Of a DNA stretch of 64,000 nucleotides, positions 18,285-18,618 are shown piece after piece. The notes beneath the pieces were generated by a model. The model searched no databases and had not been told where the DNA came from. It worked only from the letters and a program-made list of their open reading frames with translations. The translations under genes and the position numbers were made by a program. Positions within the stretch are counted from its first letter, which is position 1. Each line of letters opens with the position of its first letter. This stretch comes from a virus. Location: positions 120,281-184,280 of the IMG/VR virus record IMGVR_UViG_3300044960_000113, one strand, 5' to 3'.

Positions 18285-18305
18285 TTTTAATATCTCCTTA
18301 AAATC

Positions 18306-18336
18306 AAACCGGGCTCCTTTTTATGGAGCCCGGTTT
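18306..18336 (-). terminator. attenuator terminator A
   Basis: 12-bp stem AAACCGGGCTCC/GGAGCCCGGTTT then GATTTT. Confidence 0.85.
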
Positions 18337-18363
18337 TTAAATTTCATGAGATATTTATCTCTT

Positions 18364-18459
18364 TTAACCGAGCTCCTTTAGTCGCATAGGCGCATATGAA
18401 CTAAAGCTCACTAGAAGCATTGTACATAATGATGGTAACCAATAAGTTGCTTGTTTCAT
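18364..18459 (-). CDS. leader peptide A (31 aa) MKQATYWLPSLCTMLLVSFSSYAPMRLKELG
   Basis: AAGGA upstream; last codons GGAGCTCGGTT pair with the terminator 5' arm. Confidence 0.78.
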   Translation of the reverse strand: MKQATYWLPSLCTMLLVSFSSYAPMRLKELG

Positions 18460-18507
18460 TTACTTTAAAATTCCTTTTAATTAAATTGTATCTATGTTAT
18501 ATTTATA

Positions 18508-18618
18508 ATAATATCACGTTTTTTCAAAAAAGTAAACTATTTTTTCCTAAATTTTTTAAAAAATTAAGCTGTATTTACATCATATTTATAATAATATCAT
18601 GTTTTTCAAAAAAGTAAA
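18508..18618 (-). promoter_or_regulatory. tandem duplicated sigma70-like promoters TTTACT-N16/17-TATTAT
   Basis: 18508-18536 and 18591-18618. Confidence 0.65.

Follow-up and report, generated by a model that had tools for sequence, protein, structure and literature searches.

In this work we analyzed a 64,000-nucleotide (nt) stretch of viral DNA, here called the window, which corresponds to bases 120281-184280 of a 184-kb virus contig of the IMG/VR database (IMGVR_UViG_3300044960_000113). Its subject is a compact locus, unit A, located upstream of a homologue of the ribosome-rescue gene arfA and of a long array of tRNA genes. An initial annotation, made from the sequence alone, had proposed that this locus is a transcription attenuator that controls arfA and the tRNA array. 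This proposal is supported, at the level of the sequence, by a short open reading frame (ORF) with a Shine-Dalgarno site, by a terminator and a predicted antiterminator, by the match between the leader codons and the tRNAs encoded downstream, and by conservation. All the features of unit A, and those of the two sister units B and C described below, are on the minus strand. In the order of transcription, unit A and the genes that follow it are composed of:

18591-18619 (-): upstream promoter copy, with a GTTTAC -35-like box and an extended -10 (promoter scan, motif scan, 22-nt repeat)
18508-18537 (-): leader-proximal promoter copy (promoter scan, repeat, motif scan)
18472-18476 (-): leader Shine-Dalgarno site AAGGA; AAAGGAA is invariant in the alignment
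18364-18459 (-): leader ORF, 31 codons plus stop (stop codon 18366-18364)
18400-18411 (-): candidate region 1, tentative; it pairs with region 2 in the leader-only fold and is nucleotide-invariant in four genomes
18365-18377 (-): region 2, the 5′ strand of the predicted antiterminator; it overlaps the last three sense codons and the stop, and is invariant in four genomes
18348-18361 (-): small spacer hairpin in the antiterminator loop (predicted folds), present in relatives with altered sequence
18306-18336 (-): intrinsic terminator, with a 12-bp stem and a 7-nt loop, followed by GATTTT
18168-18284 (-): arfA homologue, 38 aa, with a KGKGS motif
18093-18167 (-): non-canonical tRNA-like gene with a CAU anticodon, whose 5′ end abuts the arfA stop codon
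17081-17958 (-): proximal tRNAs Trp, Ala, Phe, Val, Tyr, Val and Tyr (ARAGORN, Rfam)
16333-17010 (-): ORF that stands between the proximal and the distal tRNAs
15412-16310 (-): distal tRNAs Pro, Ser(GCU), Ser(UGA), Ser(CGA), Thr(GGU), Cys and Leu(UAG) (ARAGORN, Rfam)
15502-15584 (-): weak tRNA-like stretch among the distal tRNAs, before Leu(UAG)
14859-14895 (-): strong terminator, with a 17-bp stem and a T-run; probable end of the transcription unit

The two promoter copies share an exact 22-nt repeat, for which the chance expectation is 0.04. Two copies are also present in two of the relatives of unit A (L132 and L146, see below), and the -35 and -10 boxes of the leader-proximal copy are invariant in a three-genome alignment. 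The same motif also precedes unit B (21711), the tmRNA gene (32564) and a Thr-Asn tRNA pair (4934). The leader ORF ends in GGAGCTCGGTT (18376-18366), i.e., its final 11 nt including the first base of the stop codon. The terminator is formed by a 5′ arm (18336-18325) that contains AACCGGGCTCC, a loop (18324-18318), and a 3′ arm (18317-18306) that contains GGAGCCCGGTT. As noticed in the initial annotation, the end of the leader is a near copy of the terminator 3′ arm: GGAGCTCGGTT is one C-to-T change apart from it, and therefore it forms 11 bp, one of them G-U, with AACCGGGCTCC of the 5′ arm. The pairing of region 2 with the 5′ arm amounts to -20.2 kcal/mol (RNAduplex), compared with -8.5 on average when the upstream 120 nt were shuffled 500 times with their dinucleotides preserved, and no shuffle was as good (0/500). 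The terminator hairpin itself has -22.5 kcal/mol and, counted from its 9-bp G+C core, a tail with 7 T in 9. The antiterminator and the terminator are mutually exclusive, and region 2, which overlaps the leader stop codon, could be masked by a ribosome at the end of the leader. A pairing of region 1 with region 2 is present in the leader-only fold of the window; it is weak, and only partly kept in relatives. Only 6 nt separate the terminator from the ribosome-binding site of arfA. Hence, there is no space for a promoter between them, and arfA can be reached by read-through only. A T-box or any other known RNA leader was rejected as a candidate for this region. The T-box model of Rfam was not matched, neither at the gathering threshold nor with E values up to 1; one leader family alone gave a hit, L20_leader, which reached 24.3 bits against a threshold of 58.7 and was taken as chance.

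We then compared the codons of leader A with the tRNAs encoded downstream. Array A has the order CAU tRNA-like gene, seven proximal tRNAs, a 225-aa ORF, the Pro, three Ser, Thr, Cys and Leu tRNAs, and an 84-aa ORF. A Ser(GGA) gene (14765-14677), just past the terminator at 14895-14859, was counted with this array, and the set of amino acids is not changed by it. The set comprises 11 amino acids (Met, Trp, Ala, Phe, Val, Tyr, Pro, Ser, Thr, Cys and Leu). Of the 30 post-initiator residues of leader A, 24 belong to it, against a background of 0.468 calculated over 50,445 codons in the long ORFs of the phage itself (binomial P = 2e-4). All 11 amino acids occur in the leader, and so the earlier claim that the six amino acids of the proximal cluster are all found there was correct. 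When the phage's own proteins were scanned in 8,979 sliding windows, 38 of them reached a fraction of the 0.80 type seen in leader A and 0 also covered all eleven amino acids; among the small ORFs in any frame, 1 out of 560 showed both the fraction and the full coverage, and this is presumably leader A itself. Codons 4-25 are cognate to the array without exception. The six outsiders fall at codons 2-3 and 26-31, i.e., at the start of the ORF, or in or beside region 2. Those at codons 26-31 sit where the predicted RNA pairing would fix the sequence, and a ribosome that stalls there would itself mask region 2. Runs of consecutive cognate codons (22, 39 and 14 in length) were recognized post hoc and were not used in the P values.

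Unit A was also found, through homologues of the neighbouring proteins, in three metagenomic contigs (L118/L130, L132 and L146), and these neighbouring proteins are 62-74% identical between the window and the relatives. Conservation extends over both promoter boxes and the Shine-Dalgarno site, and further over the leader's 3′ half, region 2 and the terminator. The leader frame is open in all four genomes: the indels in the ORF are multiples of three, and a 7-nt indel is located in the spacer of the 5′ untranslated region, outside the ORF, so that the distance from the Shine-Dalgarno site to the ATG is 12 nt in the window and 5 nt in the relatives. Non-synonymous and synonymous changes occur with similar frequency, and a third-codon-position bias, sought as a sign of selection at the peptide level, was not found. 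Thus, the frame and the composition have been kept rather than the sequence of the peptide. The replacements mostly stay inside the amino acid set of the array; immediately ahead of the terminal Lys-Glu-Leu-Gly, the four genomes have a codon for Leu, Cys, Pro or Phe. In the terminator of L118, two C-G pairs have become U-A through compensatory changes, C to T in the 5′ arm and G to A in the 3′ arm, and the changed 5′ arm still forms G-U pairs with the invariant region 2, and therefore both alternative helices survive.

These comparisons bear on a scenario that the initial annotation had set against its own proposal, namely, that the ORF encodes a functional small hydrophobic peptide (a membrane toxin, a holin-like protein or another micro-protein) provided with its own terminator. 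Leader A is indeed hydrophobic and its 3′ half is strongly conserved; however, this conservation extends to synonymous sites, which points to a constraint at the RNA level, and a functional peptide fits poorly with the similar frequency of non-synonymous and synonymous changes across the relatives (14 to 1 in unit B, see below). Furthermore, the sister leaders of the same architecture are acidic or polar and not hydrophobic, the leader A peptide has no match in Pfam, and behind the terminator arfA is without its own promoter. We consider this explanation very improbable. A lipoprotein or signal peptide was also discarded on inspection of leader A, in which no lipobox precedes the Cys.

Two further units of this kind are present in the window:

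21495-21644 (-): unit B, with leader 21644-21555, region 2 21552-21534 and terminator 21521-21495
21482-20808 (-): genes of unit B, i.e., Gly, Glu, Gly, Asp, Asp-like and two Arg tRNA-like genes
12346-12515 (-): unit C, with leader 12515-12411, region 2 12420-12402 and terminator 12379-12346
12224-11600 (-): genes of unit C, i.e., Asn, Lys, Ile, Gln and His

Both have the layout of unit A and a significant antiterminator (0/500 shuffles each). In leader B, 12 of the final 17 codons are for Gly, Glu, Asp or Arg. Its Arg codons are all CGN (4/4), matching the ACG and UCG anticodons encoded downstream, in a genome where AGA accounts for 59% of the Arg codons and CGN for 36%. In a 3 x 3 matrix of leaders against arrays, the diagonal is the row maximum in every row (0.80, 0.43 and 0.45). 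Unit B of the relative L130 has an identical region 2 and an ORF of unchanged length, with 14 non-synonymous changes vs 1 synonymous; its Gly tRNA gene is decayed, and its leader contains one Gly codon, compared with three in the window. A+T-rich pseudogenes in the closest relative that has a long contig (L118:1586-1760 and L130:7318-7500) represent the decayed arfA, CAU gene and first Gly tRNA, next to intact leaders and terminators.

Some additional observations were made at these two units. Three non-canonical tRNA-like genes, all missed by ARAGORN with its defaults, follow tRNA-Asp at 20808-21043 (-): the first one is Asp(GUC)-like (36.7 bits in Rfam), and the other two have long variable regions and reduced D arms, with anticodon loops that were read as ACG and UCG (Arg). 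Just upstream of leader C, there is a G+C-rich and apparently structured stretch of ~250 nt (12600-12845, -) with no match in Rfam, with a strong phage promoter on one side (12886) and, on the other, a hairpin that resembles a terminator (about 12570-12594).

The match between leader and array appears, from the sequences, to recur in phage groups that are not related to each other. In L131, a 51-codon leader precedes an array of 19 tRNAs for 13 amino acids; 45 of its 50 post-initiator residues are cognate (P = 3e-4), all 13 amino acids are present, and the five outsiders are all within region 2. G001, a complete phage of 345 kb with terminal repeats and 48 tRNA genes, has two leader units. Its leader 1, located before an array of only Leu, Tyr, Ser and Trp tRNAs, has 17 Leu/Ser/Tyr/Trp residues out of 29, 14 of them consecutive (P = 3e-6). 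In its leader 2, 41 of 42 residues are drawn from the complementary 16 amino acids, with no Ser, Tyr or Trp, and with a single Leu that is located in region 2. The antiterminator is significant in the units of L131 and G001, where 0-5 of 500 shuffles were as good. Fisher combination of six non-homologous units gave a P of the order of 1e-13 (our own arithmetic on the binomial P values). A comparable arrangement is found in the annotation of a cultured phage, phiCbK of Caulobacter, in which a 45-aa hypothetical protein, gp083, and a predicted terminator, at 49540-49770 of JX100813, are placed directly before a tRNA block (Pro, Pro, Lys, Lys, Leu x3, Ser x2); by our own count from the translation, 23 of the 44 residues of gp083 are Pro, Lys, Leu or Ser. 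In the same phage (L151, JX100813), rho-independent terminators are annotated at 48120-48166 and 51465-51502, directly before a Glu/Asp and a Phe/Val/Ile/Gln tRNA block.

The depositors of phiCbK labelled such hairpins before tRNA blocks simply as terminators, and partial terminators are frequent in phage operons. Both facts would suit an ordinary leaky or stage-specific terminator, read through constitutively or by means of a phage antitermination factor, in which the short ORF takes no part. Such a terminator leaves unexplained, however, the significant pairing of the ORF end with the 5′ arm in nine units, as well as the frame that is kept by indels in multiples of three, the conserved Shine-Dalgarno site and the codon match, and we regard it as quite unlikely.

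The first gene after terminator A is, as originally proposed, a homologue of arfA. The ORF scored 26.8 bits against the Pfam family ArfA (PF03889; hmmscan, cut-off 25.5), and 24.9 bits, slightly below this cut-off, in the six-frame search of the genome. Its six best matches in the Protein Data Bank (PDB) are all ArfA chains, and its residues 4-32 align to residues 13-41 of Escherichia coli ArfA in the solved ribosome complexes (PDB 5MGP, 5U4I, 5MDV and 5H5U). Apart from this alignment, the Pfam match and the KGKGS motif, which are common to both proteins, the 38-aa phage ArfA differs from that of E. coli in that it lacks the N-terminal dozen residues and the C-terminal tail. The genes differ as well: the phage gene has a normal stop that abuts a tRNA-like gene, whereas E. 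coli arfA has an internal RNase III site, and unlike the latter the phage gene is placed behind a putative leader-peptide attenuator. arfA is intact in L132 and L146, and decayed in L118. A tblastn search of the GenBank phage collection with ArfA gave no match, which is probably due to the length of the query and to the low-complexity filter. In viral contigs, at least 116 stretches carry KGKGS ArfA-like ORFs, several of them inside tRNA arrays, and a phage ArfA has been annotated earlier in the pelagiphage HTVC027P (gp30; PMC12753301). Hence, a phage-encoded ArfA is not new; what is specific to this lineage is its place as the first gene behind a predicted stall-sensing attenuator. The arfA homologue of G001 (L149:850-1650; about 202917-203600 of G001, -) has its own promoter and no leader, and a tRNA with a CUA (amber-reading) anticodon is located ~500 nt downstream of it.

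The gene that follows arfA, which carries the CAU anticodon, was missed by ARAGORN and by Rfam, even at E <= 1. In the minimum-energy structure it adopts a cloverleaf, in which the acceptor stem has 7 bp and the anticodon loop 7 nt, and it ends with a discriminator base and an encoded CCA; the D and T loops are atypical, and the T loop is without the usual consensus. L132 and L146 contain copies of this gene that are 100% identical to it, and in L118 it is decayed. With regard to the proximal cluster of the initial annotation, the Trp, Ala, Phe, Val and Tyr genes were recovered by both programs, whereas the assigned 'Met' gene was detected by neither and stands on its CAU cloverleaf with CCA. 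The first base of this gene comes directly after the arfA stop codon, and therefore processing by RNase P would end the arfA mRNA at that point. A related arrangement was observed in L031 (positions 90-302; IMG/VR contig 3300045988_106809), in which the arfA frame enters a tRNA-Gly gene by 17 nt and has its stop inside the tRNA. By analogy with the RNase III-truncated arfA mRNA of E. coli, RNase P cleavage in L031 would yield a non-stop arfA mRNA. In L013 and L077, a tRNA-Val gene is located directly after arfA. The ~130-nt stretch between the CAU gene and tRNA-Trp (17960-18090, -) is kept in L118, L132 and L146, contains a pair of conserved hairpins and matches nothing in Rfam; a small RNA of a new type or a processing element may be encoded there.

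The anatomy of the unit, the significance of the alternative pairing, the match of codons with tRNAs, the conservation, and the recurrence in phages are direct observations. Every sequence-level feature of the leader-peptide attenuator class that could be tested was found, and this supports the placing of unit A in that class. With a probability of roughly 0.7, unit A would be a ribosome-mediated (leader-peptide) transcription attenuator that senses the supply of the tRNAs that it controls. From these observations we infer a stall-dependent read-through, including the timing and pausing of polymerase and ribosome, the length of the transcript and the physiological trigger, which might operate as follows. 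Transcription would start at either promoter copy, and the 31-codon leader would be translated at once. When decoding is fast, the ribosome at the stop codon would cover region 2 (18377-18365), the terminator would fold, and most transcripts would end before arfA. A ribosome delayed anywhere within codons 4-25 would leave region 2 free to pair with the terminator 5′ arm, and once this antiterminator is formed the polymerase would read on into arfA and the tRNA genes. The unit would thus behave as a supply sensor with negative feedback, in which a shortage of any of the listed charged tRNAs, caused for instance by host shut-off or by host tRNA cleavage, would lead to more of those tRNAs and of the rescue factor. 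When the transcript was folded only up to the terminator loop, the helix of region 2 with the 5′ arm (2:3) was the minimum-energy structure in 9/9 units. Region 2 overlaps the stop codon or comes directly after it in the window and in the close relatives, and is located 15-31 nt before it in L131 and G001.

Several observations weigh against this interpretation. The antiterminator is predicted even without a ribosome, and this no-translation state is unlike that of the textbook trp model; in addition, the 1:2 helix loses to the 2:3 helix in the longer fold. A pattern scan did not call terminator A on the minus strand, because its T-run, which is short and interrupted, has only 4 T in the 8 positions after the full 12-bp stem. 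Under strict wobble rules the array tRNAs read 18 of the 30 codons of leader A (P = 2e-3), and two TTA, ACA and other codons are not read. The first 12 codons of leader B are not cognate. In leader C the cognate codons are 15 out of 33, with P = 0.065 in this A+T-rich genome, a value that is equalled by 20% of small ORFs. In L118, the leader and the terminator persist despite the decay of arfA and the CAU gene, and this leader includes Ile and Gln codons for which no matching tRNA was detected. A motif scan found no copy of the phage promoter motif between 17500 and 14900, but a weaker, promoter-like motif is located at 17503-17530 (-) (ATTTAC, 16 nt, TATAAT), in the 155-nt gap between tRNA-Phe and tRNA-Val of array A, and this candidate promoter could possibly feed the distal part of the array without the attenuator. 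Finally, ArfA rescues ribosomes at the 3′ ends of mRNAs (PMC8012679). It acts there and not directly on hungry-codon stalls, and therefore its link to the sensor, and its usefulness during such stalls, would be indirect.

Some of these points would also fit a real translation-coupled attenuator that reports general translation capacity (ribosome availability, coupling or infection stage), with the codon match as a by-product, e.g., of leaders derived from array sequence or of a shared composition. If the antiterminator forms by default when no ribosome is present, read-through would follow whenever the leader is not translated; the non-cognate first half of leader B and much of leader C point in the same direction, and so does a match that is weaker for codons than for amino acids. 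However, the leaders avoid exactly those amino acids that have no tRNA downstream, and they do so in six independent units, including the complementary pair of G001. In addition, the outsiders are concentrated within region 2 or past it, at positions where a stall could have no effect, and the replacements between relatives mostly remain within the set of the array. A sensor of general capacity is therefore unlikely, although not negligibly so, and a sensor of the tRNAs that the unit controls is the reading that we prefer.

A wider role of this tRNA-supply sensor, proposed here tentatively, would be in counter-defence. Anticodon nucleases or a translation shut-off would deplete tRNAs, the resulting stall in the leader would lead to replacement tRNAs and ArfA, and RNase P, by cutting at the tRNA-like gene, would define where the arfA mRNA ends. 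Together with the nearby tmRNA and CCA-adding enzyme, this could constitute a self-regulating module of translation repair. We hold this to be possible, and less probable than otherwise.

The window has a G+C content of 27% and contains ~30 tRNA genes, a permuted tmRNA, a CCA-adding enzyme and T4-like replication genes, and the contig represents about half a genome (CheckV). In other contigs, homologues of the neighbouring genes of the window adjoin T4-type structural and replication genes. The phage is therefore a T4-like jumbo phage. In a blastn comparison of the region with GenBank phages, the only matches were tRNAs and a leucine-rich-repeat (LRR)-like repeat. Single-protein scans of IMG/VR with the 225-aa ORF, a NUDIX protein and the CCA-adding enzyme gave zero relatives, neither IMG/VR nor the JGI metagenomes gave a match when scanned for exact motifs of unit A, of unit B and of the conserved RNA, and the contexts of P0008, P0006, P0007, P0126 and P0124 showed no synteny. 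The LRR-like repeats, of 63 nt (21 aa), make up the genes at 18673-19312 and 63352-63996, and they alone account for the blastn match to LR756501 and LR756503, 735-kb records of uncultured phages. Elsewhere in the window, the large subunit of ribonucleotide reductase (5312-9880, -) is split in two ORFs with intein/Hint fragments at the junction, and it is adjoined by a TnpB (OrfB_IS605/Cas12f-like) gene.

What appears to be new here, as judged from the sequences, is that the trp-operon style of leader-peptide control, which has been modelled for amino acid operons (PMC1183508), would be applied to the tRNA genes of phages. No earlier description of leader-peptide control of tRNA genes was found in the full-text literature searched, which is an absence in that literature and not a proof. 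Since the arrangement recurs and one of the phages that carry it, phiCbK, is in culture, the hypothesis is open to bench experiments. The tRNA genes of phages are usually seen as cargo that is expressed constitutively and serves codon usage or counter-defence. If the proposed control is true, phages would measure the speed of decoding codon by codon and would replenish only the missing tRNAs, and the textbook attenuation of trp, his and ilv would extend from the supply of amino acids to the supply of tRNAs. In unit A, one switch would also govern a ribosome-rescue factor, so that the sensing of stalls would be coupled to their repair. In addition, the leader would give a prediction, from the sequence only, of which tRNA genes are co-transcribed and of the codons that the phage 'expects' to be limiting in its host.

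Multivalent attenuators are known in enterobacteria, as in ilvGMEDA (Leu/Val/Ile) and thr (Thr/Ile), and others of the class are trpL, hisL, leuL and pheL. Like the ilv and thr attenuators, unit A has a promoter-proximal short ORF with codons cognate to the product of the operon and a stop at or near region 2, followed by an intrinsic terminator and a mutually exclusive antiterminator. The phage units differ from the ilv/thr type in what they would control, i.e., tRNA genes (and arfA) instead of biosynthetic enzymes; in the number of amino acids that they would monitor, up to 11-16 instead of 1-3; and in the distribution of the regulatory codons, which are spread along the leader instead of forming short runs. 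They are also viral, their 1:2 pause hairpin is weak, and the antiterminator is apparently the default fold. The attenuator of E. coli pheST, with its pheM leader, controls the phenylalanyl-tRNA synthetase. It is alike in that a component of the translation apparatus is placed under leader-peptide attenuation that senses charged tRNA, and it differs in that it is bacterial, controls a synthetase and responds to a single amino acid. T-box elements also attenuate transcription in response to the supply or charging of tRNAs; they differ in that they bind uncharged tRNA directly, without translation, whereas the phage units would read the tRNA supply through a ribosome that translates the leader.

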